Of a stretch of DNA of 64,000 bases, positions 2,641 to 47,467 are shown in pieces. The DNA lies in the UHGV virus genome UHGV-0090440; one strand, 5' to 3'. The stretch's first letter is position 1. Each line of letters begins with the position of its first letter. Origin of the DNA: a virus. The notes under the pieces were generated by a model. It was not told the origin of the DNA, made no database searches, and saw only the letters and a list, made by a program, of their open reading frames with translations. Both the position numbers and the translations under genes were made by a program.

Positions 2641-3294
2641 CTATCCTTTCTTGAAATCGAAGTTGCCAGCAGTGGCCTGAAAGGTTCCCCCTGCCTTGAA
2701 AGCTATGTCCCCGTTAGCGGTGACAGCAATATTTTCCCCATTAACATTGATGTTGTTGGCTGATTTGACGTTAACACTCCCTCCTGCATTCACGATTACA
2801 TCAGCCGGACCAATGATATATATCTGCCCGGACTCATTCATGCCAATCCTTGAGCCTGCTGCCGTATTGGCAATTTCATAGCCGCCACCAGCAGTTCGTA
2901 CTTCAAGAATATTGTTGCGGTGAATAACGAAGTCTTTCGTTGCTGAGATTTGGGGGCGGGGAGGTGCTCCATCTACTTCCGGCGGCGTCCAGCCGCTACC
3001 ATTGCCTGACGCCTCCGGCGCGACGTTTGGAACTCCGCCAGGCGCATCCTGAGCCGCGCCAACTATCATTGGGCGTCTGGTGTCTATTCGACCGTTAACA
3101 TCTAAATAAGGAAACTCTACCCAGACCAGGTCACCTTTGACTGTAGGTACAAAAGCGTTCCCGATGGGTAACAGGTATTCCGCCCAGGGTAGATCGTCAT
3201 CAGGAACGCCATTCCAGTCAGGTAAAACACGGACTTGAGCACGCATAAGCCCTGCCGGGTGCACAGTTCCAACAATTTGCGCTCTACGCTTCAT
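2641..3294 (-). CDS. putative baseplate spike / gpV-like protein
   Basis: N-terminal OB-fold-like pattern (LPW...G..PTVKGDLVWVEF...G) typical of P2 gpV / Mu gp45-family spike proteins, followed by a Gly/Asn-rich repetitive C-terminus (NAGGSVNVKSANNINVNGENIAVTANGD). Confidence 0.4.
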   Translation of the reverse strand: MKRRAQIVGTVHPAGLMRAQVRVLPDWNGVPDDDLPWAEYLLPIGNAFVPTVKGDLVWVEFPYLDVNGRIDTRRPMIVGAAQDAPGGVPNVAPEASGNGSGWTPPEVDGAPPRPQISATKDFVIHRNNILEVRTAGGGYEIANTAAGSRIGMNESGQIYIIGPADVIVNAGGSVNVKSANNINVNGENIAVTANGDIAFKAGGTFQATAGNFDFKKG

Positions 3295-4271
3295 TTGTTA
3301 GGCACTCCCAATATCATTCGTGTTGTGTAGCCTACTCGGTCCTCAAAGTGCGCAACATTTTTTACTATCAGCTTACGGGGCATTGATTCATCAATGCGGT
3401 TTTCCTGGTCATAGCGGTATACGATAATCTCTATTACCATCCCCGGTTTTATATCAGGATTGCCTGCGACTTCTATATCCATTTTGGGGACGAGAGACAG
3501 CTGCATATTGCGAAGAGTTTCCATATCAGAGTCGGATATATAACGCACTGGGAGTGAGCTATCGCCATATTCGACGTAGCCATCGGTCATGGAATACCCA
3601 ACAAAACGATATTGATTCTTTGCTGTTGTCGCATGTTCCTGTTGGAGTAGGCGCATTTTGGACAAAGTGTATTCTGCTTTAGGGTTATTCCCCTCGTAGG
3701 TAAATGATGGCGTTTGCTTCATCAGATCAGCCAGGGTGTAAAAGTTAAATTCCCCCCGACATACCCAACACAATGCACCTTTGTCTCGCGCTATCTCCGA
3801 AAGCATTTTTGACGGTTTGTCACCAGCATTCAGATGATATGTAACTGCGCGTTTTAGCACGCTGCTGGTAATTTTAAGTTTGCCGGAATATGCCTTGAAT
3901 ATAGCGTCTGGTGTTTTGTTGGTATGTAAATTTGTGCGCGGGGAGGGGATCTTAAACCTGCGCACGTCTTCACTGACAGCAATAACGGTAACAACATCAC
4001 CAGCCAGCATTGCAGACGTAACAAAGAAATCTGTTTTAAAAGTGCCAGCATTACCGTTTGGATCGCCCATTTCAGCCACCAGCGATGCACCGTATTTGGC
4101 TTTCCAGTCATCAATTACGGTGCCGGTAGCGTCATGAATTTCCAGTTTTAGCAAAGGGGCTTTGAGGCAGGTTTTTTCTACATATACTGCGGTAAAAATC
4201 CAGTCTCGTGGCACTTTGTTATCGTTAATGAGCACTGACTGTAGAAAATATTGTTGTAACTCCTGGGCCAC
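3291..4271 (-). CDS. hypothetical protein (possible virion/baseplate module)
   Basis: 326-aa ORF, stop overlaps the start of the spike-like gene (translational coupling); no recognisable motif. Confidence 0.35.
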   Translation of the reverse strand: MAQELQQYFLQSVLINDNKVPRDWIFTAVYVEKTCLKAPLLKLEIHDATGTVIDDWKAKYGASLVAEMGDPNGNAGTFKTDFFVTSAMLAGDVVTVIAVSEDVRRFKIPSPRTNLHTNKTPDAIFKAYSGKLKITSSVLKRAVTYHLNAGDKPSKMLSEIARDKGALCWVCRGEFNFYTLADLMKQTPSFTYEGNNPKAEYTLSKMRLLQQEHATTAKNQYRFVGYSMTDGYVEYGDSSLPVRYISDSDMETLRNMQLSLVPKMDIEVAGNPDIKPGMVIEIIVYRYDQENRIDESMPRKLIVKNVAHFEDRVGYTTRMILGVPNK

Positions 4272-4274
4272 TTA

Positions 4275-5042
4275 TCACCCCATAGATATCGAGGTTTCGG
4301 TAATAATACGTTTTGCGTCCAACTCCCATGCTGTGATCACGTCTGCAATCACACTTATCGGCGCTTGTGTGGCATAAATACGCTCTTCTCCAATTGGTGC
4401 TGAAACATCCGTAAAGCCGACTTCTTTGGCATCCTGTATCGAGCAAATCAGCGGGACCGGGACACGAACAAGGTGAGTGGTTGCTTCAAATTGTGTACCT
4501 GTCATCAGGCGAAGCCGTGCGCCCAGCGAATTACACATCAGACTCATGGTCGCTTTATCAGTTGCCATTAACGTAACGTCATACGTCAGAATGGCCTGGG
4601 TGTATTCCAGTTCTGCTAAAGGCGTTCCGCTATCTGGTTCGCAAAAACTGGCTACTTTTTTGCGGTCAATCTGCTGATCATCGTTGATATAATTGATATC
4701 CATAGTGCGTGAGATATTGACCAGGGGGAGAGCATCCCGGTTAATGTTCTGGTTTTCAGGTTTTCTCCCTTGCCCGGCATTTGCGCGACGAACTGCTTTA
4801 AGAAACTCGATCGCATTGTCGAAACGGGCCATATAGACACGCTCTGCTGGTGGACGATTCAGGAATGACGCAAAGCGTTTTTCTTCCGGCGCGGGGGCCA
4901 CCAGTAAGATATCAGAAAAAATGTTGCTGATTAGCGTCGCAAACGCGTTATCCACGTTTTCAAAGCCCGTGGTCTGGAATTTTCCTGTGCGTAAGGTTTG
5001 CCATTCACCGGTTCGCGCCAGGAGGGTTTTATTTGACGTCAT
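4275..5042 (-). CDS. hypothetical protein
   Basis: 255-aa ORF in the same tightly packed minus-strand operon. Confidence 0.35.
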   Translation of the reverse strand: MTSNKTLLARTGEWQTLRTGKFQTTGFENVDNAFATLISNIFSDILLVAPAPEEKRFASFLNRPPAERVYMARFDNAIEFLKAVRRANAGQGRKPENQNINRDALPLVNISRTMDINYINDDQQIDRKKVASFCEPDSGTPLAELEYTQAILTYDVTLMATDKATMSLMCNSLGARLRLMTGTQFEATTHLVRVPVPLICSIQDAKEVGFTDVSAPIGEERIYATQAPISVIADVITAWELDAKRIITETSISMG

Positions 5043-13140: not shown

Positions 13141-13831
13141 AGGTTTAACGCCAGAGCAACTGGCGGAGATCGAGCTTTACTATCCGTTACGTGAACGTTA
13201 TTCACCGAAACCAGCGCCTAAATGCCCTGTTTGTGGCGAGGAAATGTCAATGCAGCGCATATCTGGATCACATGTTGTTTATGCCTGTTCCGGCATGGAG
13301 GATGACGGATGCTTCAAAACTGGACGAACTTATGCTGACGAGCATTACAAAAATTCGCGCATATCAGTAGTTGATGGTAGCGATCCTGATGTGATTGAAC
13401 TGCTGGACGAGAACGTGGAGAAGGCTCTAACGCTTGAGAATCTGCGTGTTGAGCTGGAGGCCGCTAAAAAGTGTATTGCAGAGCTGGAAAGCAATTGCGG
13501 GGCGCTGGTGGCGGAATGCCAAAACAAAAAAGCAGCACTTGAGGAAATTCTTAGCCATCTCCCAATTAATCATCCAGATATAGACATCGCATGTGTAGCG
13601 AACATAGCTCATAACAAATTAGGCGAGGCGAAAAGCACTACATCTGAAGCTTACCTTGTTGAAATACAGGCTCAGGGATTGGAGGCATTCGCTTTGACGA
13701 TGCGCGATACCGGAGATGATCCATTTTTTGATTCCGTTGCTTCTGCTTGCGCGGATGCGGCTGACAGGTTCGCAGCCCTGCTTCGTAAAGGACAATCCTG
13801 CCTGCGCCCGAACTTTGAAGGGAAAAGATGA
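13130..13831 (+). CDS. Ea22/Ead-like coiled-coil protein (paralogue 1)
   Basis: Coiled-coil segment [23 protein letters not shown] shared with the three paralogues below. Confidence 0.4.
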
Positions 13832-14154
13832 TGCCCACATCGCATTCTGCAATTACCCAGGAAAAAGCCTTCCACATACTCGAACGATTAGAGACGCTCG
13901 CTACGGAGGAGGATATATCCCCGGAGATGCTGGTTGAGTGCAGCCGTGTGATATTGCGTCGCAAGAACGACATCGCGCGGCTGACATCTGGCGCACCATC
14001 CGTATCAGCCAGTCCAACGCTTTATTGCAGCTTCTGCAACAAATCCCAGCACACCGTTAAAAAGTTAATTGCCGGGGACAACGCTTTCATATGCAACGAG
14101 TGCGTGAAAGATTGCAACAACATTATCCAGGAAGATCAAAGGGAATCAGCATGA
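13828..14154 (+). CDS. standalone ClpX N-terminal zinc-binding-domain homologue
   Basis: C-terminal 40 aa ([39 protein letters not shown]) align almost residue-for-residue with the E. coli ClpX N-domain ([40 protein letters not shown]), including all four Zn-ligand cysteines; no AAA+ module follows. Confidence 0.6.
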
Positions 14155-19123: not shown

Positions 19124-19954
19124 ATGAGCGCTATAACCAAAGATCGACTACTGACAATCAAGCAGTGGCGCGAAACATACGGACCTGGTAGCAACGTTGT
19201 ACTGCCAGCAGAAGAAGCGGAAGAACTGGCGCGGATTGCGCTGACATCGCTGGAAGCAGAGCCTATTGGTGAAGTTTCAGAGAAGCAACATGGCCTTGTT
19301 ATGGATGGGACGGTAGACCTTGGCGGGAAATCAACTTATCGCATCATTAAGGGAGAAAAAGCGATGAAGTTGTTGCCGTTGGGGACGAAGTTTTATACCG
19401 CACCGCCAGCGCCGATAACGCCGGAGGCCATTGAAAACGCAATTGAATACATCCGCAGTATCGCTTTTCACATCGATGAAGACGATTACCACGGCAAACA
19501 TATTGCGTATTTCATGCGACAAGCATTGGCCTGGCTGGAAGGGCATTCATGCAGCGACGACAGACAGGGTAAAGCCGAGAATCAACCAGTACGCGGCAAC
19601 CATGCTGCCGAATCCAATCGCGGTAATGAGTGGACCGGCAATCCTGATATTGATAACGCAATCATCATGCTCGACCGCATAGATACGCTGGAAAATTGCG
19701 ATGATGACCGTATTGAGGCTGTTAAGGCCGTTTTGCGTAGACTGGCTGGCAACCATCCGGATTTTCCGGATAGCTCCCAACAATCGCCCAAGGAAAGCGT
19801 AAAAACCACTCTGGAAAGAGGCTATCTTGAGGCCGCATTAAAGATTAAGCCGGGCCATACGCTAGGCGTCATTGATGCCATGTTGGTTCATGAAATGGCG
19901 AAGGCTTTATTGCCGCTGGTGGCTGATAAAATTCCGAATAAGGCCGATATCTGA
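19124..19954 (+). CDS. hypothetical protein
   Basis: 276-aa ORF, last gene of the plus-strand block, followed by a terminator. Confidence 0.35.
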   Translation: MSAITKDRLLTIKQWRETYGPGSNVVLPAEEAEELARIALTSLEAEPIGEVSEKQHGLVMDGTVDLGGKSTYRIIKGEKAMKLLPLGTKFYTAPPAPITPEAIENAIEYIRSIAFHIDEDDYHGKHIAYFMRQALAWLEGHSCSDDRQGKAENQPVRGNHAAESNRGNEWTGNPDIDNAIIMLDRIDTLENCDDDRIEAVKAVLRRLAGNHPDFPDSSQQSPKESVKTTLERGYLEAALKIKPGHTLGVIDAMLVHEMAKALLPLVADKIPNKADI

Positions 19955-19965
19955 TCACCATGCTA

Positions 19966-19997
19966 AAATCCCCTCAATTCACAGAGGGGATTTTTGT
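19966..19997 (+). terminator. rho-independent terminator
   Basis: Stem atcccctc/gaggggat with 9-nt loop followed by TTTTGT. Confidence 0.55.
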
Positions 19998-19999
19998 AT

Positions 20000-20266
20000 A
20001 TGTTGCATAGAGTTTTATGGAAAAGCGTTATTGTCGGCGCGATCTTGGCTATGTCTGGGTGTGCAATGGTGCAATACAACGACGGTGAAAAGGTAAGCAT
20101 CCAGTCAGATGGCTGGTATGGGCTGGATAGTCTGCAAAAAACCGCAGATAAAGCCTGTCAGCAATATGGGAAGTCTAAAGCCGTATATCAGCATAGCGCG
20201 AACGCTAATCCCCATCTCGCGCCCGGTACGGGCGTTCAGAACACCATTTGGAAATGCGAACCATAA
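20000..20266 (+). CDS. putative small lipoprotein
   Basis: Start at ATG 20000 (MLHRVLWK...); signal-peptide-like segment ending in AMSGC (lipobox-like). Confidence 0.35.
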   Translation: MLHRVLWKSVIVGAILAMSGCAMVQYNDGEKVSIQSDGWYGLDSLQKTADKACQQYGKSKAVYQHSANANPHLAPGTGVQNTIWKCEP

Positions 20267-20305
20267 TGCTGGTGGCATCTTTGTTACAAAGAGGAACACC
20301 TGCTC

Positions 20306-20656
20306 TCAATGCAGGGGATGAGATTTAACGAAATCGATCACCCTATCCTGAACTTCAGAAAGAAGGTCTTTTTCACGCGCCAGGACGTCAGGATATTGAC
20401 GTTCTGGCCTTACCAGATGCCGGAGCTTCCCATTAAGCAGAATGGCCTCAGAAAACACTTTTACGCTGTGCTTTATCCCCTCTGTTTCACTTTTCAGCGT
20501 CAAAATAAAGCGCAATTGCTTATTAGCCTGATTCGGATTCAATACACGAATTTGCAGTTCGGCTATGCTGTTTCGCAATGGGATTGATGCCACCACACTG
20601 GTGCAGTCCCTGATTGTCTGAATTGAACGGCTAACATTGAGAACGTTATTGTGCAT
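20306..20656 (-). CDS. hypothetical protein
   Basis: 116-aa ORF on the opposite strand between the lipoprotein and hot. Confidence 0.25.
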   Translation of the reverse strand: MHNNVLNVSRSIQTIRDCTSVVASIPLRNSIAELQIRVLNPNQANKQLRFILTLKSETEGIKHSVKVFSEAILLNGKLRHLVRPERQYPDVLAREKDLLSEVQDRVIDFVKSHPLH

Positions 20657-20688
20657 GTGCCTGATCCACTAACTCCTGGAGGTTTCTT

Positions 20689-20940
20689 GTGTCAGATCGA
20701 AATATAGCAGCTAAAAGCCAGGAAGAGCGAGACAAGGTGAACGTAGACCTTGCCGCCAGCGGCGTTGCTTACAAAGAACGGCTGAATATACCTGTGATTG
20801 CAGAGCAGGTGGCCCGTGAGCAACCGGAAAACCTGCGCGCCTATTTCATGGAACGGCTACGGCACTACCGGCAGTTAAGCCTCCAGTTGCCAAAAGGGAG
20901 CGATCCGGTGTATCAGAAAGAAGATATAGCCAAAAAATAA
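20689..20940 (+). CDS. hot: homologue of DNA polymerase III theta subunit (Hot)
   Basis: [43 protein letters not shown] aligns closely with E. coli HolE ([44 protein letters not shown]) from memory. Confidence 0.8.
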
Positions 20941-21038
20941 CGCACCACCAGGCGAGCGCAAAGCATCGCGCTATTGCACACTTCAAGCATCTTTAATGTA
21001 TACTGTATGGATAAACAGTATTCTGAGGTGAAAACGCT

Positions 21039-21428
21039 ATGGGCTTCCCTTCTCCTGCGGCGGATTATGCTGAGAGCCGTATTTCTCTTGATCAGCAGAT
21101 AATTAGACATCCTTCAGCGACCTACTTCATGAGGGCAGCTGATAGTCATCATCGTGAGGGAATATTACAGGGTGCTTTGCTGGTGGTTGATTCCTCGCTT
21201 ACTCCGGTTGATGGTTCTCTGCTTGTGTGCGCTATGGAGGGTGAATATCGCATAAAGAGATACAGGAAGTATCCGCGCCAGCACCTGGAGGATTTAAGCA
21301 CCGGGAGGAAAGAGGCGTTACCAGTGGATGACGATGGATGCACGGGGAGTAATGCTGTTTTTGGTGTGATCACTCATGTCATCAATGATGTCCGAAGTGG
21401 GGAATTTGATGATTGTCCGGTGATTTGA
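21039..21428 (+). CDS. humD: UmuD'-like protein (HumD)
   Basis: GFPSPAADYAE..ISLDQQIIRHPSATYF aligns with UmuD (GFPSPAADYVE..IDLNQLLIQHPSATYF); C-terminus VFGVITHVI matches UmuD VFGVVIHVV. The GDSM Ser-nucleophile motif appears replaced (DSHH), as expected for a pre-processed UmuD' analogue. Confidence 0.75.
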   Translation: MGFPSPAADYAESRISLDQQIIRHPSATYFMRAADSHHREGILQGALLVVDSSLTPVDGSLLVCAMEGEYRIKRYRKYPRQHLEDLSTGRKEALPVDDDGCTGSNAVFGVITHVINDVRSGEFDDCPVI

Positions 21429-21500
21429 GCTGCAAAGTGCTGGTGCTTTATACCTGTGAAGTTTATAGTTGTGTACACATAACGAGCACATGAGGTGTTT

Positions 21501-21722
21501 ATGCAATCCATTAACTTCCGTACCGCGCGCGGCAACCTTTCTGAAGTGCTCAACAATGTTGAAGCCGGGGAAGAGGTTGAAATCACCCGCAGAGGCCGAG
21601 AGCCAGCAGTAATTGTCAGCAAGGCTACTTTTGAAGCCTACAAAAAAGCGGCGCTGGATGCTGAATTTGCATCCCTGTTTGACACCCTGGACTCCACCAA
21701 CAAGGAACTGGTTAACCGATAA
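21501..21722 (+). CDS. phd: Phd antitoxin
   Basis: [39 protein letters not shown]... matches P1 Phd as I recall it; immediately followed by doc. Confidence 0.85.
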
Positions 21723-22102
21723 TGAGGCATATATCACCGGAAGAACTTATTGCGCTTCATGATGCGAATATAAGCCGCTACGGCGGCCTGCCGGGAATGT
21801 CAGATCCGGGTAGGGCAGAGGCCATTATCGGGAGAGTTCAGGCCAGAGTTGCCTACGAAGAGATCACCGACCTTTTCGAAGTCTCCGCCACCTACCTGGT
21901 GGCTACGGCGAGAGGGCATATATTCAATGATGCCAATAAGCGTACCGCGCTAAACAGTGCGCTGCTATTTCTACGCCGTAACGGTATACAGGTATATGAT
22001 TCTCCCGTGCTGGTGGAACTTGCGGTGGGGGCCGCAACTGGTGAAATCCCCGTATCTTCAGTAGCGGAAAAACTACGTGAATTATTTGGTTCCAATATTT
22101 GA
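21722..22102 (+). CDS. doc: Doc toxin (Fic-fold kinase)
   Basis: 126 aa; start overlaps the phd stop; [11 protein letters not shown] Fic-like motif. Confidence 0.85.
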
Positions 22103-22107
22103 AAAGA

Positions 22108-22130
22108 AGCCCGCTCAACCAGGCGGGCTT
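22108..22130. terminator. hairpin terminator between doc and the convergent minus-strand operon
   Basis: aagcccgc-tcaaccag-gcgggctt stem-loop; a T-rich tract follows on the minus strand. Confidence 0.45.
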
Positions 22131-22185
22131 CCTACTATCACTCAATGATTTTTTCTGCTGTCAGCCAGCTAATTCGGTGATGTTT

Positions 22186-22986
22186 TTAGGCGTCAGCATC
22201 CTCCGCTACCTCTGCTTCAACATCAGCCACGGCTTCATCGGACGGTTCTTCTTTGGCCTGCTCTGCAATCGCCGCACGGCATTTTGCCCTTGCTGTGGCG
22301 ATTGCTTCAGCACGCACATCATCAGGAATCATTGACGTGATATACATATCCAGTTCTTCGGCGCGGAACACTGTTTGGTCCAGATATTCGCGTAGCATCC
22401 AGGTAAACTCGAAATCACACGCGATAATCTCTGCGCTACCTTCTGCACCATTTGGGAAATGAATAAATGCCTGTTTAGCCAAACCGATAACACGACATGC
22501 GGTTGCCAAAACAGCGGCAACCAGGTTTACATTTTCACACGCTACGGGCTGATTAACGCCGGAGATTACTCCATTTAACTGTCGGTTATATGGAAGGTAG
22601 TTTGAGATGCGTTCTACGCGCCATGTGCCAGTCAGGCTGCCATTCTTAAAGATAATTGGTGTAACGGATAGCCCAAGCTCGCGTATAAGTCGTTGCGCTA
22701 TAGCAGGATCATTAAACATGTCTAATGCTACACATTCGAAAGACTGTGCAAGGGTAAACAGTTCTTCCAGAGAGTAGTCTTTGCCCCTGGCGGTGATGTA
22801 ACGATGAACGCCGCTTTCTGCATCACTCCATATAGCTACGCCATGCTCTTCATTCAGCTCTTCATTAAAGCCGAGATACGTCATGATAGTACGTTCAATC
22901 GTGTCAAACGGCAGTGACATGTCGGCGTTAACAGCCACCAGCAGGCCATTACGCAAGCGGTATTGAATTGCTTTAGTATTTTCCAC
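22186..22986 (-). CDS. hypothetical protein, acidic C-terminus
   Basis: 266-aa ORF. Confidence 0.35.
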   Translation of the reverse strand: MENTKAIQYRLRNGLLVAVNADMSLPFDTIERTIMTYLGFNEELNEEHGVAIWSDAESGVHRYITARGKDYSLEELFTLAQSFECVALDMFNDPAIAQRLIRELGLSVTPIIFKNGSLTGTWRVERISNYLPYNRQLNGVISGVNQPVACENVNLVAAVLATACRVIGLAKQAFIHFPNGAEGSAEIIACDFEFTWMLREYLDQTVFRAEELDMYITSMIPDDVRAEAIATARAKCRAAIAEQAKEEPSDEAVADVEAEVAEDADA

Positions 22987-22992
22987 GTTAAA

Positions 22993-23655
22993 TCACTCCA
23001 CTACAAACCAGTCACATGCCAGTAAGTCGCCTACAGAAGGAACCCACGGAACAACTACACCTTGTGCATTTTTTAAGGCGAAATAAGCACCATACGGAAC
23101 GAGATCGCCGGGGAAATATCCCTTAATGGCTTCCATTCGTGCCGGGTACTGTCCTTCAGGAACCAGCCAGCAGAATTGGTTTTCGCCGTTCCACCCGCGC
23201 CGGGCAACTTTCTTGCCATCCTTCAGCCACATCAGCGCGTCAGAAAAGTCGGCTGCTTCAAGGTCGATTTCTTCTTGTAGAGTAGCGATACCGCCAGCAG
23301 AAATAGTTACGTCCCTGGCTGTAATGAATGTCACCCCATTGTGACCTTCAATGCTGAGCGATACCCCATTTTCGGAGGCGACGTTAACCCGGCTATAGCA
23401 TTTTTCAAATGCTTTCTCTGGCACATAGACCAGATAGCCATTTTCAGCAGTGACGAGATATCCTCCTATTTGCGGTCGGAATTTTTCCAAGAACGCACCA
23501 TCAACACGAAGCGTCATTCCTTTTGGCTCAACGACTTCGATACTGCCAAAAATGGGCGCATAAGCTTTGCCGACAATAACAATATCTTTGATTTTCGATG
23601 CCCGAATGATGCTGTGGCATTTGTATTTGGGGAACACCTGAAAAGTGCTGACCAT
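22993..23655 (-). CDS. hypothetical protein (DUF2829-like C-terminal motif)
   Basis: C-terminal W..KDGKKV.RRGW...VP....GDLLACDW resembles the DUF2829 signature as I recall it. Confidence 0.35.
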   Translation of the reverse strand: MVSTFQVFPKYKCHSIIRASKIKDIVIVGKAYAPIFGSIEVVEPKGMTLRVDGAFLEKFRPQIGGYLVTAENGYLVYVPEKAFEKCYSRVNVASENGVSLSIEGHNGVTFITARDVTISAGGIATLQEEIDLEAADFSDALMWLKDGKKVARRGWNGENQFCWLVPEGQYPARMEAIKGYFPGDLVPYGAYFALKNAQGVVVPWVPSVGDLLACDWFVVE

Positions 23656-23669
23656 AATCCTTCCTCTAC

Positions 23670-24164
23670 TTAAAACTTTGCGTACTGAAGCGGTGTACGC
23701 TTGATTTCAACGCGGTCTTCCGATGTGCTACCAAAGCCACCAGCGCCTCGCTCTGTTTCATCGAGTTCATCAACTTCTACCAGCGATACCGGTTCAACAC
23801 GCTCAAAAATGCCTTGCATGACCGCCATTCCTGGCTTGAGGCAAACGCCTTCACCACCGGGATCTGTAATCAGTTTTGCCATGATTTCACCGCGATAATC
23901 GGAGTCGATAATTCCTACGCAGTTAGCCAGGCGAGTATGTTTTTTGCAGCCCAATCCGGAACGCGGATAGAGTTTCAGACACCAGCCGGGCGGGATCTCC
24001 ATAGCCAGTCCGGTGTACACCCACCAGCTTGAGGAAATTGCACCATTGCTATCGACACATGGTTTTATTTCAACAGCCTCAAAATCCATCGCCGCCGATC
24101 CGGAGGTGGCATAAGCTGGAAGTTTTGCTGCCGGATGTAGGCGTTTCACTTTTACGTAAATCAT
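23670..24164 (-). CDS. dut: dUTPase (trimeric dUTP diphosphatase)
   Basis: Conserved dUTPase motifs: AMDF, RSG, IIDSDYRGEI, and C-terminal ERGAGGFGSTS. Confidence 0.8.
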   Translation of the reverse strand: MIYVKVKRLHPAAKLPAYATSGSAAMDFEAVEIKPCVDSNGAISSSWWVYTGLAMEIPPGWCLKLYPRSGLGCKKHTRLANCVGIIDSDYRGEIMAKLITDPGGEGVCLKPGMAVMQGIFERVEPVSLVEVDELDETERGAGGFGSTSEDRVEIKRTPLQYAKF

Positions 24165-32322: not shown

Positions 32323-32398
32323 CAACCAAATATGGTGGCCCCTACCGGACTTGAACCGGTGACCGTGCGATTATGAGTCGCCAGCTCTAACCACTGAG
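32323..32398 (-). tRNA. trnI: tRNA-Ile (anticodon CAT, lysidine type) - could alternatively be Met
   Basis: 76-nt cloverleaf ending CCA; anticodon loop CTCATAA; close to E. coli ileX (GGCCCCTTAGCTCAGTGGTTAGAGCAGGCGACTCATAATCGC...) from memory. Confidence 0.7.
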
Positions 32399-32562
32399 CT
32401 AAAGGGCCAGATTACTGTTAATTCCGCTTACGCTTTTTGCCAGGACCGCGTAAGGCTTTTGCTGCTTGCTCGACCCCATATACAACCACCAGCAGAAATA
32501 AAAATGTCCACCAAGGGTTCTTATCGGCAAACGTCCAAAATTCCATCATGTTCTCTATTTGG

Positions 32563-33390
32563 TTATTTCACCGGAACAAACGGAACAGCGGTATTACTGG
32601 TCATATACTGCGGTAGCGTTCCGTTCCATTTGTTGATCGCTTCCAACTCCATAACGCCGGGGTTCTGGCGCAGAGCCTCACCGCGTAAACGAATGGCATC
32701 AGCTTCAGCCTGGGCTTTTGTGCGAATGGCATCGGCCTGTCCGGCAGCTTCTGCGCGCAGCATGTTGGCTTCTGCTTCGCGTTGCTTGACTTCCTGCTCG
32801 CGTTGCAGAGTTTTCTGGTTCGCCGTGACTTTGGCATTAATGCTGTCGATAACGGTTGGCGGGTACTCCGGCTTGCCCACATATGAGAGGCTCATTACCT
32901 GAATACCGATGGGCGTCATTTCTTCCTGGATGTCTTTAAGAGCTGCATCCAGTAGTTCAGACTTGCCACCGTCGATAAATTTGTCGGTGGTCATTTTGCT
33001 GGCCAGTCGGTTAAGTGCGTCGGCAATCTTCTGGCGCAGATCGGTGTCGGTAATGTCATCCACGCCTTTGCGGTAGGTCTGAAATACAGTTGTGACTTTT
33101 GCCGGATCAACCTTGTAAGCTACACCAATGTGGTAACCAATTGTTGTCCCGTCGCTCATTTGGAAGCTGAACGGATCATCATAGGTCTTCATTTGCTTAA
33201 AGGTCGGGAAGATATAAACTTCTGTGTTCCAGCCTGTCCAGTAGCGACCAACGCCAACTACTTCGCCGACACCTTTATCATCCCCCAGCTTATTTACTTT
33301 GATCCCTACATTGCCTGGTTCTACCCGGTCGCATCCGGTCAGACATAAAGAACCAAAAATAATCGCTGCACTAATCAACGTTTTTTTCAT
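32563..33390 (-). CDS. plp: SPFH/band-7 domain lipoprotein (Plp-like)
   Basis: Signal peptide with lipobox LTGC; SPFH-like core; coiled-coil C-terminal region (QREQEVKQREAEANMLRAEAAGQADA). Confidence 0.6.
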   Translation of the reverse strand: MKKTLISAAIIFGSLCLTGCDRVEPGNVGIKVNKLGDDKGVGEVVGVGRYWTGWNTEVYIFPTFKQMKTYDDPFSFQMSDGTTIGYHIGVAYKVDPAKVTTVFQTYRKGVDDITDTDLRQKIADALNRLASKMTTDKFIDGGKSELLDAALKDIQEEMTPIGIQVMSLSYVGKPEYPPTVIDSINAKVTANQKTLQREQEVKQREAEANMLRAEAAGQADAIRTKAQAEADAIRLRGEALRQNPGVMELEAINKWNGTLPQYMTSNTAVPFVPVK

Positions 33391-33607
33391 TAATCAATTT
33401 CCTGGTTTTTTCACGAAAAAAGACTACTGCAAAAGCCGGGTAAATGAGCGCGAGAAGGACTCCCAACAATACAAGTATTGTGCTGTCAGATGAGATCATA
33501 TTTGGCAAAAGCCAAACATACAGAACCAGTGACACAATCAAACAGAGGACGGCATAAATATATAGCCGCACCCATAGCGTTCGACATTTGTTCGGATTGT
33601 TCTGCAT
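33371..33607 (-). CDS. upl: small membrane protein upstream of plp (Upl-like)
   Basis: 78 aa with two hydrophobic helices; overlaps the plp start. Confidence 0.45.
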   Translation of the reverse strand: MQNNPNKCRTLWVRLYIYAVLCLIVSLVLYVWLLPNMISSDSTILVLLGVLLALIYPAFAVVFFREKTRKLINEKNVD

Positions 33608-33754
33608 CCTCTCACTCCATTATTCAACGAATAAAAAAGCTGCGGTGCCTGGTGCCTCCAGGTGACGTTAACCAGTTAACAATTAACGCCGGGATGTTTG
33701 ATTTAACCACTACGGAGGATTGTTTTAACTGTTCCGCGTGCGCTTAGCCGCATT

Positions 33755-33869
33755 CACCGCAATGGTAAGAGCACTTGGCTGGCTGGGCGGCGATGACGCC
33801 TGTACGCATTTGGTGATCCGGTTCTGCTTCCGGCATTCGCTTAATTAGCCAAATACTCTTAACGTTGCG
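33755..33869. repeat. long imperfect hairpin element U1
   Basis: Arms ccgcaatggtaagagcacttgg / ccaaatactcttaacgttgcg; abuts the 3' end of the tRNA-Ser-like gene. Confidence 0.4.
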
Positions 33870-33956
33870 CTGGCGGAGAGTAATGGAATCGAACCATCAT
33901 CGCTTGCGCAATGGGACGGTTTTCAAGACCGCTTGAGCACCATGCTCCCTACTCTC
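33870..33956 (-). tRNA. tRNA-Ser-like (anticodon TGA), class II, atypical D-arm
   Basis: Acceptor GGAGAGT/ACTCTCC with discriminator G and CCA; anticodon arm GCGGT-CTTGAAA-ACCGT nearly identical to E. coli tRNA-Ser(UGA); long variable arm; T-loop TTCGATT. The D-arm is short and irregular, so it may be a tRNA-like RNA or pseudogene. Confidence 0.4.
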
Positions 33957-34081
33957 CAATTGTTGTGGTTACCGGTACTGATCTCCGGCTTAGCGACCCC
34001 GGCTACTGACTGCATTGCAGTGTGTGAACTCGCCTCGTGTGTCGCTGGGGCATTTCTTTCCGCGCATCAGTCTGCGCATCA

Positions 34082-34158
34082 ACCACAACGGAAAGAGCAT
34101 TGGCTAACCAGGCTCGCCGACTCTTCACGATTATCGGCCCAATGCTCTTACCTGTTGT
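34082..34158. repeat. long imperfect hairpin element U2
   Basis: Arms ccacaacggaaagagcattgg / ccaatgctcttacctgttgtg (about 20 bp stem) around a 34-nt loop. Confidence 0.4.
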
Positions 34159-34340
34159 GCGCTCCGTTTCGTGGAGCTAACGGCGGGTGATCGGGCCGCA
34201 CCAGACTGGACTTATTTCAGCGTTATGCTCATGCCAGAGAATCAAACTGTGATGGTCGGTGCTGAACTCCGACACAGGGTTGTAGCAAGCCCCGCAAAGC
34301 GCGCACTACTGTAGTTGCGGCACATCAGCCTGTGCATTCA

Positions 34341-34435
34341 CCACAATGTTGAGAACACTGGTTGTCACGCTGCCTCGCGACCTTTATTCATAGATTGGGA
34401 TATGACCCCGTTACGCCAATGTTCTCAACGTTGTA
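34341..34435. repeat. long imperfect hairpin element U3
   Basis: Arms ccacaatgttgagaacactgg / ccaatgttctcaacgttgtag; stem differs from U2/U4 by compensatory changes. Confidence 0.4.
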
Positions 34436-34574
34436 GTGCCGGTTACGGTTCCGGCCAGGCTTCTTCCTCAACGGGGTGTTCTCCATACGGACTACCGTTT
34501 ATTGGTCGTTCCTGCGGTTTATGTTGTGAAGCCAGATGCTTATCTTCTGGTTGCTTCAAAGAGCTGCACTTCAT

Positions 34575-34661
34575 CACAACGGTAAGGGTACTTCGTAGGG
34601 ATTCGAACCCTCTGCCAAGCTCGGCGATCTCCGACGTCGCAAAATACCCTTACCTGTTGTG
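34575..34661 (-). ncRNA. hairpin element U4: long stem enclosing a tRNA-like T-arm (candidate small stable RNA)
   Basis: Arms cacaacggtaagggta / tacccttacctgttgtg; the loop on the minus strand contains AGGG-TTCGAAT-CCCT, a canonical T-arm. Lies directly 3' of tRNA-Thr on the same strand. Confidence 0.35.
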
Positions 34662-34662
34662 T

Positions 34663-34738
34663 TGGTGCCGGTTAACGGACTCGAACCGCTGACATCCTGC
34701 TTACAAGGCAGGCGCTCTACCAACTGAGCTAAACCGGC
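34663..34738 (-). tRNA. trnT: tRNA-Thr (anticodon TGT)
   Basis: 76-nt cloverleaf: acceptor GCCGGTT/AACCGGC, D-arm GCTC-AGTTGGTA-GAGC, anticodon loop CTTGTAA, T-loop TTCGAGT, 3' CCA. Confidence 0.75.
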
Positions 34739-34742
34739 AATT

Positions 34743-34829
34743 TGGTGGGGAGTGATGGAGTCGAACCACCCGAGTCGCAATGACAGTAGATTTACAGTCT
34801 ACCCCGCTGCCCCTACGGACTAACTCCCC
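34743..34829 (-). tRNA. tRNA-Tyr (anticodon GTA), class II
   Basis: Acceptor GGGGAGT/ACTCCCC, anticodon arm GTAGA-CTGTAAA-TCTAC (identical loop to E. coli tRNA-Tyr), long variable arm, T-loop TTCGACT, CCA end. Confidence 0.55.
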
Positions 34830-34834
34830 TAAAT

Positions 34835-34909
34835 TGGCGATGGTGGGTGGATTCGAACCACCGACCAGTTGGTTAACAGCCAACTGCTCTACCGCTGAGC
34901 TACACCATC
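34835..34909 (-). tRNA. trnA: tRNA-Asn (anticodon GTT)
   Basis: 75-nt cloverleaf: acceptor GATGGTG/CACCATC, D-arm GCTC-AGCGGTA-GAGC, anticodon arm GTTGG-CTGTTAA-CCAAC, T-arm GGTGG-TTCGAAT-CCACC, CCA. Confidence 0.75.
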
Positions 34910-46811: not shown

Positions 46812-47467
46812 AAAAAGCCCCGACCAGGCCGGGGCATCACGCTTCAAGTCACGATCCAATCATTACCGACTATATCAGCCGTCGATAAATCAACTTCCCG
46901 GATCTGGAGTCCATCAGTGTGCCTCCGCAATGCTGGGATTGGTAATATTGCGATACCAGGGATTAGTGTTTGGTTGTGGGGAAGTAGAGAAACGACCAGT
47001 AAGAACACCATACTGATCAGGGATCAGAGAACGGGCTTCTTTTTCGGTTGCGGCAATTGCGAAGTGATCGCAGTGTTTTTGCAGGGAGTGGAAACGCCAG
47101 ATGAATTCTGGACGTGAGCAAGGATTGGCATTAACCATAGTTACGGCCTCACTAACAGGTTTAACAACCTGCTACCCGCTGTCAAACAGGTGGCAGGACG
47201 TGACAGGGTTGACAGACTGGCGTTAGTGAAACCAGCAGGCCGAAGCCTCCCCATCACGCCCCACCATAATTCGGGCGTAACGCGATTTACGGACACAAAA
47301 ATACCGCAATATCGGAAATCTGCGGTTGTCCGCACTAACATTCAGGCTGTCAAACCTGGTCGCAGAATTTGCTACGACGGCATTAATATAAGCCTGAAAA
47401 CATGGAAGATCAACTAAAAATTTCAGCAATGGATGACTTCAGTCGATGATGCAGATCATACATTCCG

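Follow-up and report, generated by a model that had tools for sequence, protein, structure and literature searches.

Four intact genes of P1 type

Between positions 20689 and 22102 of the DNA that we analysed (64,000 nucleotides of virus genome UHGV-0090440, hereafter the window), four short genes follow one another on the plus strand in the order hot, humD, phd and doc. The question that they raise is whether they form a single machine directed against the host or a set of neighbouring, separable parts. The first-pass annotation had placed four reading frames here, had assigned them to the Hot, HumD, Phd and Doc proteins of phage P1 and, together with a ClpX zinc-finger mimic, had read them as a sign of extensive manipulation of host replication, SOS and proteolysis functions. 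Our results confirm the four frames at exactly these positions: hot (20689-20940, 83 aa, GTG start), humD (21039-21428, 129 aa), phd (21501-21722, 73 aa, ATG start) and doc (21722-22102, 126 aa), the start of the last sharing one base with the phd stop (TAATG).

Comparison with the P1 proteins by BLASTP yielded 76 of 83 identical residues for Hot (92%, E 2e-56), 123 of 129 for HumD (95%, E 3e-94), all 73 for Phd (100%, E 2e-53) and 113 of 124 for Doc (91%, E 5e-85). Pfam and NCBIfam models exceed their curated cut-offs for all four products. Hot is matched by PF06440 DNA_pol3_theta (113.9 bits, cut-off 34.6) and by the theta subfamily NF008207 (105.1 bits, cut-off 97), and Phd by PF02604 PhdYeFM_antitox (49.8 bits, cut-off 29.8) and TIGR01552 phd_fam (48.1 bits, cut-off 20.8). 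Doc is matched by PF02661 Fic (38 bits, cut-off 24) and TIGR01550 DOC_P1 (120.8 bits, cut-off 38.65). For HumD, the equivalog model NF051876 'HumD family' is matched along its full length (positions 1-129 of 129) with 214.3 bits, against a cut-off of 120, and Pfam Peptidase_S24 lies above its gathering score. The closest PDB sequences are likewise those of the solved P1 HOT (1se7/2ido, E 1.5e-45), UmuD', Phd (3hry/3k33, E 1.6e-42) and Doc (3k33, E 2e-70) structures. On these alignments the identification of the four genes is real, far beyond what chance would give. The low identity or broken frame that had been named as the weak point of the assignment was not found, with identities of 91-100% and every frame intact.

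We consider it very probable that the stretch is a P1-type accessory set of hot, humD and phd-doc in a D6-like E. coli phage-plasmid, with three independent units made adjacent by shared descent and recombination. This reading stands on the observed identities, motifs and operators, and on intact frames under purifying selection. Both the genes and their order are known, the lineage of phage-plasmids that carries them is common, and the shared humD-phd-doc cluster has been published.

The four genes could instead be decaying remnants from a P1-like ancestor, nonfunctional in this lineage. Phage D6 lends itself to such a reading, since its hot is reduced to 48 aa by a deletion and a 140-aa ORF (orf109) is inserted between its humD and phd; moreover, hot-lxr-humD has been listed as a region of high variability in P1-like phage-plasmids (PMC9603915). 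However, the window lacks the insertion, its hot is full length, and all four frames are complete with good ribosome-binding sites, as judged from the ORF list and from reading the sequence. The catalytic and operator motifs are also intact. Codon comparison with P1 gives a dN/dS of 0.04 for hot despite saturating synonymous change (dS 1.13, 83% nucleotide identity), and of 0.09 for humD (dS 0.26, 93% nucleotide identity), with no replacements in phd. The complete frames and the low dN/dS thus go most of the way to refuting decay, which we regard as extremely improbable. A 139-aa antisense ORF (21318-21737) was rejected as a gene: it runs antisense to humD and phd, on which purifying selection is strong, and no relative has it annotated.

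A D6-like element with a P1-type gene order

When positions 19500-23500 were compared with phage records by megablast, D6 (95.7%), RCS47 and P1 were matched. The E. coli plasmid pIso00270_02 (NZ_CP095127.1) shares 99.2% identity with these 4 kb and has the same gene calls. Matches to the flanks come from D6 and from many non-mobilisable E. coli plasmids of roughly 90 kb. At a larger scale, identity to E. coli plasmids is 97-98%, and to D6 93%, for positions 1-25000 and 25001-50000 of the window. Rfam models found the antisense immunity RNA C4 together with its targets, as well as a cluster of tRNAs, all outside 20689-22102; inside these positions the gathering scan returned no structured RNA. 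Because of the flank and whole-region matches to D6 and to plasmids, the C4 RNA and the tRNA cluster, the window is, on sequence grounds, a D6-like phage-plasmid of E. coli. Phage D6 (orf107-orf111) and pIso00270_02 share its flanks, namely a DUF551 protein, a 116-aa minus-strand ORF, an isaA-like gene, a DUF2829/Tad2-like gene and dut. The direct hot-humD junction is found in 69 PLSDB plasmids.

In P1 (NC_005856, 86567-88831) these four genes likewise follow one another in this order on a single strand. P1 also shares the LexA box, which lies about 20 bp ahead of humD, as well as the promoter/operator Pphd and the overlap between the phd stop and the doc start. A published survey describes the humD-phd-doc cluster as one that P1 has in common with a second group within the P1-like phage-plasmids (PMC9603915). 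In P1, however, hot and humD are separated by lxr, which is on the opposite strand, where the window has a 98-bp spacer (20941-21038), and pdcA/pdcB follow doc, where the window has a hairpin and a converging 266-aa gene. Upstream of hot, P1 has upfM/N/O and the late promoter LPhot, whereas the window has the divergent 116-aa ORF. The likeness to the P1 gene order therefore stands for hot-humD-phd-doc, and does not extend to the six-gene synteny hot-lxr-humD-phd-doc-pdcA: the window has neither lxr nor pdcA, and its upstream flank is of D6 type. In D6 itself the 3' end of doc is of P1 type and a pdcA-like gene is present; the window has neither.

The 116-aa minus-strand ORF (20306-20656) was considered as a relocated lxr and rejected, as it shows no similarity to Lxr (E 21). 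It matches no Pfam or NCBIfam family.

Hot as a putative theta substitute

The GTG start of hot is preceded at 7 nt by a Shine-Dalgarno sequence, GGAGG (20677-20681), and matches the RefSeq start in pIso00270_02. In the folded core of the protein, T51A is the sole difference from P1 HOT, and residues 4-68 match E. coli theta (1du2) at E 9e-20. Judged by these matches, the hot product is a homologue of DNA polymerase III's theta subunit, of the P1 HOT type. The holE-encoded theta of E. coli (PDB 1du2, 2axd) belongs to the same family and has a folded core of equal length; Hot differs from it in being phage-borne, in its longer C-terminal tail and in lying nearer to P1 HOT.

P1 HOT stabilises epsilon, can substitute for theta and is expressed both in lysogens and during lytic growth (PMC2528190; PMC7556043). 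As for all biochemical activities discussed here, we infer from work on P1 and E. coli that Hot would act as a substitute for theta or as a supplement to it, binding and stabilising the epsilon proofreading subunit of the host DNA polymerase III. As to its expression, no hot promoter passed a promoter scan of 20250-22400. The late-promoter box of P1, AAGTTACTT, has no exact copy in the 64-kb window; its one-mismatch matches number 11 against 12.5 expected, which is the chance level, and none lies near hot. Since the box is absent and its near matches occur as often as chance predicts, late control of hot in the manner of P1 is unsupported.

HumD keeps the catalytic dyad and lacks the cleavable arm

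HumD had been described as a UmuD'-like protein without the nucleophile for self-cleavage. Our alignments show this to be wrong. Using HMMER with 1umu and 8gmt, Ser36 (codon 21144-21146) and Lys73 (codon 21255-21257) align with UmuD Ser60 and Lys97, the active-site residues that cut off the N-terminal 24 residues of UmuD (PMC5342242). The G-D-S-M of UmuD has become A-D-S-H and one residue has been deleted, with the Ser-Lys dyad kept. The protein is instead without the N-terminal arm of 24 residues and, with it, the Cys24-Gly25 cleavage site. Indeed, Gly2 of HumD aligns with UmuD Gly25 (8gmt_B), which is residue 1 of UmuD' (1umu_A). Because this arm and its Cys24-Gly25 bond are missing, HumD counts as a ready-made UmuD', which has neither a self-cleavage step nor the ClpX-tethering signal that the arm bears. 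With E. coli UmuD' (PDB 1umu, 8gmt) it has in common the S24 fold, a start of G-F-P-S-P-A-A-D-Y and the dyad. On the other hand, its acidic C-terminal tail is longer than that of UmuD/UmuD', and it has no adjacent umuC. In D6, the annotation of the matching segment names no umuC-like gene, so HumD would have to depend on a UmuC supplied by the host or by a plasmid.

Upstream of humD lies a sigma-70 promoter-like site, TGCACA-18-TATACT (20975-21004, plus strand), the sole promoter-like match in 20250-22400. Its -35 element, TTGCAC, and the flanking bases are kept in P1. The -10 element is overlapped by a perfect LexA (SOS) box, TACTGTATGGATAAACAGTA (21001-21020), which aligns with the annotated LexA site of P1 and is the sole TACTGT-N8-ACAGTA match in the 64-kb window, where 0.07 would be expected by chance. 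From this predicted operator we infer that humD is SOS-controlled. Host LexA, bound at the box that overlaps the promoter, would keep transcription off, and DNA damage would lead to expression. Being already in the UmuD' form, HumD could then join host UmuC in an active polymerase for lesion bypass, and the slow cleavage step that RecA mediates would not be needed. McLenigan and colleagues are said to have reported in 1999 that P1 HumD complements UmuD' in SOS mutagenesis with UmuC. The element may thus give its host a LexA-controlled, cleavage-independent UmuD' and a theta substitute, an addition that would bear on the mutation rates of strains with resistance-bearing P1/D6-like plasmids.

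An addiction pair with a chimeric toxin

The mechanically opened ORF of phd begins at GTG 21495. This start was rejected in favour of ATG 21501, which yields the 73-aa length of P1 Phd and was set by alignment to that protein. The 72-bp spacer between humD and phd aligns with the annotated P1 Pphd. It contains a -10 element, TATAGT (21464-21469), that differs by one base from the TATAAT of P1. A left operator palindrome, TGTGTACACA (21470-21479), is identical to that of P1. In the right operator site, CGAGCACATG (21483-21492), two of the ten bases differ from the P1 site CGAGTACACG, a change that includes the central GTAC. All of these elements are on the plus strand, and the promoter/operator region 21464-21493 is identical to that of pIso00270. 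The gene thus has the arrangement of an antitoxin: it lies directly upstream of doc and overlaps it, with a palindromic operator at its own promoter.

The Fic motif of Doc, HIFNDANKR (residues 66-74, 21917-21943, plus strand), is intact and fits the pattern H-x-F-x-[DN]-[AG]-N-K-R. By homology, which is also the ground for its kinase activity, Doc is a Fic-fold kinase toxin. Doc of P1 phosphorylates EF-Tu at Thr382, while Phd shows conditional cooperativity and is a substrate of ClpXP (PMC4803016). By analogy, Phd would repress its own promoter and block Doc. Doc in turn would act as co-repressor or de-repressor, depending on the Phd-to-Doc ratio. On loss of the plasmid, host ClpXP would degrade Phd and the stable Doc would phosphorylate EF-Tu (Thr382), halting translation and removing plasmid-free cells. 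Phd/Doc would in this way explain the stable upkeep of D6-like phage-plasmids, although the value of this beyond annotation is small.

The doc gene is not uniformly close to that of P1. Nucleotide identity is 99% over codons 1-87 and drops abruptly, at about 21984/21985, to 66% over codons 88-126 (21985-22102, plus strand). We read Doc as a chimera whose last 39 codons come from another allele, with a sharp recombination breakpoint at about 21985. The divergent 3' end and the hairpin and other DNA downstream of it are an allele of this lineage, present in 76 PLSDB plasmids. That the P1-identical Phd neutralises the chimeric Doc is assumed here from the P1 pair. The new C-terminus might alter the cooperation of Phd and Doc at the altered right operator site. 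The hairpin itself, GAAGCCCGC-N8-GCGGGCTTC (22106-22131), is a perfect 9-bp inverted repeat between doc and the converging 266-aa gene, and in a terminator scan the T-run beside it was found on the minus strand only.

A use of phd-doc other than the killing of plasmid-free cells is suggested by its distribution. At least 80% of the four-gene stretch is present in about 275 of 5,426 complete E. coli genomes, against 1,399 that carry some part of it, and phd-doc is by far the most widespread part. The partial matches that were sampled mostly hold phd-doc alone, one of them chromosomal, and 97 chromosomal places were found overall. The pair also adjoins a Tad2-like anti-defence gene and other accessory genes, and phage defence is among the roles given to toxin-antitoxin systems in reviews (PMC10532202). 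Phd-doc could hence be mainly a device for defence or competition, through abortive infection or exclusion of rival plasmids. Yet the P1 pair is defined by death on curing (PMC4803016) and Phd is here 100% identical to that of P1, while the sequence itself cannot tell defence from plasmid-loss killing. We consider a mainly defensive role unlikely, and it would be compatible with the P1-type accessory set proposed above.

Three separable units

The four genes differ strongly in their distance from P1. Phd and doc codons 1-87 show 99% nucleotide identity, a dS of 0.03 and no replacements, while in doc codons 88-126 dS is saturated at about 2 and dN reaches 0.25; hot and humD have the intermediate values given above. 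Across these comparisons dN/dS ranges from 0.04 to 0.22. Some E. coli genomes carry hot alone, others humD alone, the pair hot-humD, the trio humD-phd-doc or just phd-doc, which also occurs by itself on chromosomes. Because of this mosaic divergence, the breakpoint in doc, the rearrangement in D6, the separate occurrence of the parts and the separate operators of humD and phd, our conclusion is that recombination has made this stretch a mosaic, composed of three units that can be separated (hot; the LexA box with humD; and phd-doc), and that it is not a single functional machine. Each of these units is under purifying selection. The concerted manipulation of host functions suggested by the first-pass annotation therefore finds no support: its components are separable and lie apart in many genomes, P1 does without the ClpX zinc-finger ORF, and the nucleophile of HumD had been misdescribed. 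The useful outcome is a corrected description of HumD, the recognition of the 'cluster' as a three-unit mosaic with a breakpoint in doc, and a pointer to the uncharacterised ClpX-finger ORF.

A stand-alone ClpX zinc finger upstream

The ClpX zinc-finger mimic is real. It is encoded at 13828-14154 (108 aa), on the same strand as hot-humD-phd-doc, with a score of 63 bits for the Pfam model zf-C4_ClpX. The 45 residues at its C-terminus can be aligned with residues 16-61 of E. coli ClpX, including the four zinc-binding cysteines (positions from PMC8808172).

This ORF, 6.5 kb upstream of hot, allows a reading in which it forms, with hot, humD and phd-doc, one coordinated module for taking over the host. 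The free zinc finger would compete for docking at the N-domain of ClpX and so tune ClpXP turnover of Phd and of HumD/UmuD heterodimers. The encoded domain is a good ClpX N-domain with all four cysteines, and this N-domain is where UmuD/UmuD', lambda O, MuA and SspB dock (PMC8808172). Phd, as noted, is a ClpXP substrate (PMC4803016), and all the genes lie on one strand in a single long accessory block. Against such a module, P1 carries hot-humD-phd-doc without the ClpX-finger ORF. Indeed, 31 phage records hold an ORF of this kind and no P1 record is among them. The carriers are D6, CMS-2020a, PhiR41_1, PhiR44_2 and P88 and, more distantly, Caulobacter phage Cr30 and others; P88 and Cr30, compared for that ORF alone, are not D6-like. 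The four genes moreover differ in evolutionary history and occur separately, humD and phd are each served by a promoter and operator of their own, and our literature search found no paper on a phage-encoded free ClpX N-domain. A coordinated module is for these reasons improbable, and we prefer the mosaic of three independent units.

Just as doubtful is the narrower proposal that the stand-alone zinc-finger protein is a decoy of the ClpX N-domain that sets the lifetime of Phd and of UmuD-paired HumD. Were it true, addiction and SOS mutagenesis in D6-like elements would depend on a phage-encoded protease modulator. The homologue of the ORF in D6, orf93, is 83% identical and has been mis-named 'carboxylate--amine ligase'.

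Organization of the hot-humD-phd-doc region

Comparison with P1 showed that doc is a chimera: at the DNA level it is 99% identical as far as codon 87, but 66% identical in the 3′ part that starts with codon 88 (21985-22102, +). In contrast to chimeric doc, Phd is 100% identical to its P1 counterpart. The divergent doc 3′ allele is also carried by 76 PLSDB plasmids from E. coli, Salmonella and Shigella. Relative to P1, the phd operator carries two base changes in its right half (21483-21492, +), one of them in the central GTAC (GCAC in the window), and the dyad symmetry of this half-site is reduced as a result. The same half-operator sequence is found in the near-identical E. coli plasmid pIso00270.

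In the reference genome of phage D6 (L002), a deletion has shortened hot to only 48 aa (3246-3392 of that sequence) and joins it to the humD promoter region, while humD and phd are separated by an insertion, orf109 (3928-4350; 140 aa, function unknown).

Flanking genes and phage-plasmid background

Upstream, a 116-aa ORF (20306-20656, -) diverges from hot, with 32 bp between the two start codons. It matched no family in Pfam or NCBIfam, and is kept in D6 (orf106), RCS47 and many plasmids. It is unrelated to Lxr, which P1 encodes between hot and humD. A small ORF (19994-20266, +) encodes a lipoprotein-like signal terminating in a lipobox-like L-A-M-S-G-C; its RefSeq version in pIso00270_02 is shorter (71 aa).

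The stand-alone ClpX zinc-finger ORF (13828-14154, +) has homologues in CMS-2020a, PhiR41_1, P88, Caulobacter phage Cr30 and D6 (orf93, wrongly labelled carboxylate--amine ligase); among phage records holding such an ORF, none was from P1, and our literature search found no paper on it. Its product is possibly a decoy for ClpX adaptors or substrates.

Downstream, a gene at 22993-23655 (-), flanked by dut (23670-24164, -) and an isaA-like gene, encodes a protein of 220 aa whose C-terminal domain is Tad2-like (Thoeris anti-defence 2, DUF2829; Pfam, 80 bits). D6 orf114 (146 aa) lacks the N-terminal extension of ~135 residues seen in this protein.

Finally, the P1/D6-type phage-plasmid background is confirmed by a C4 antisense RNA and the a1b1 element that it targets (47186-47391, -; immI immunity of the P1 type), together with four clustered tRNA genes (32336-34909, -).
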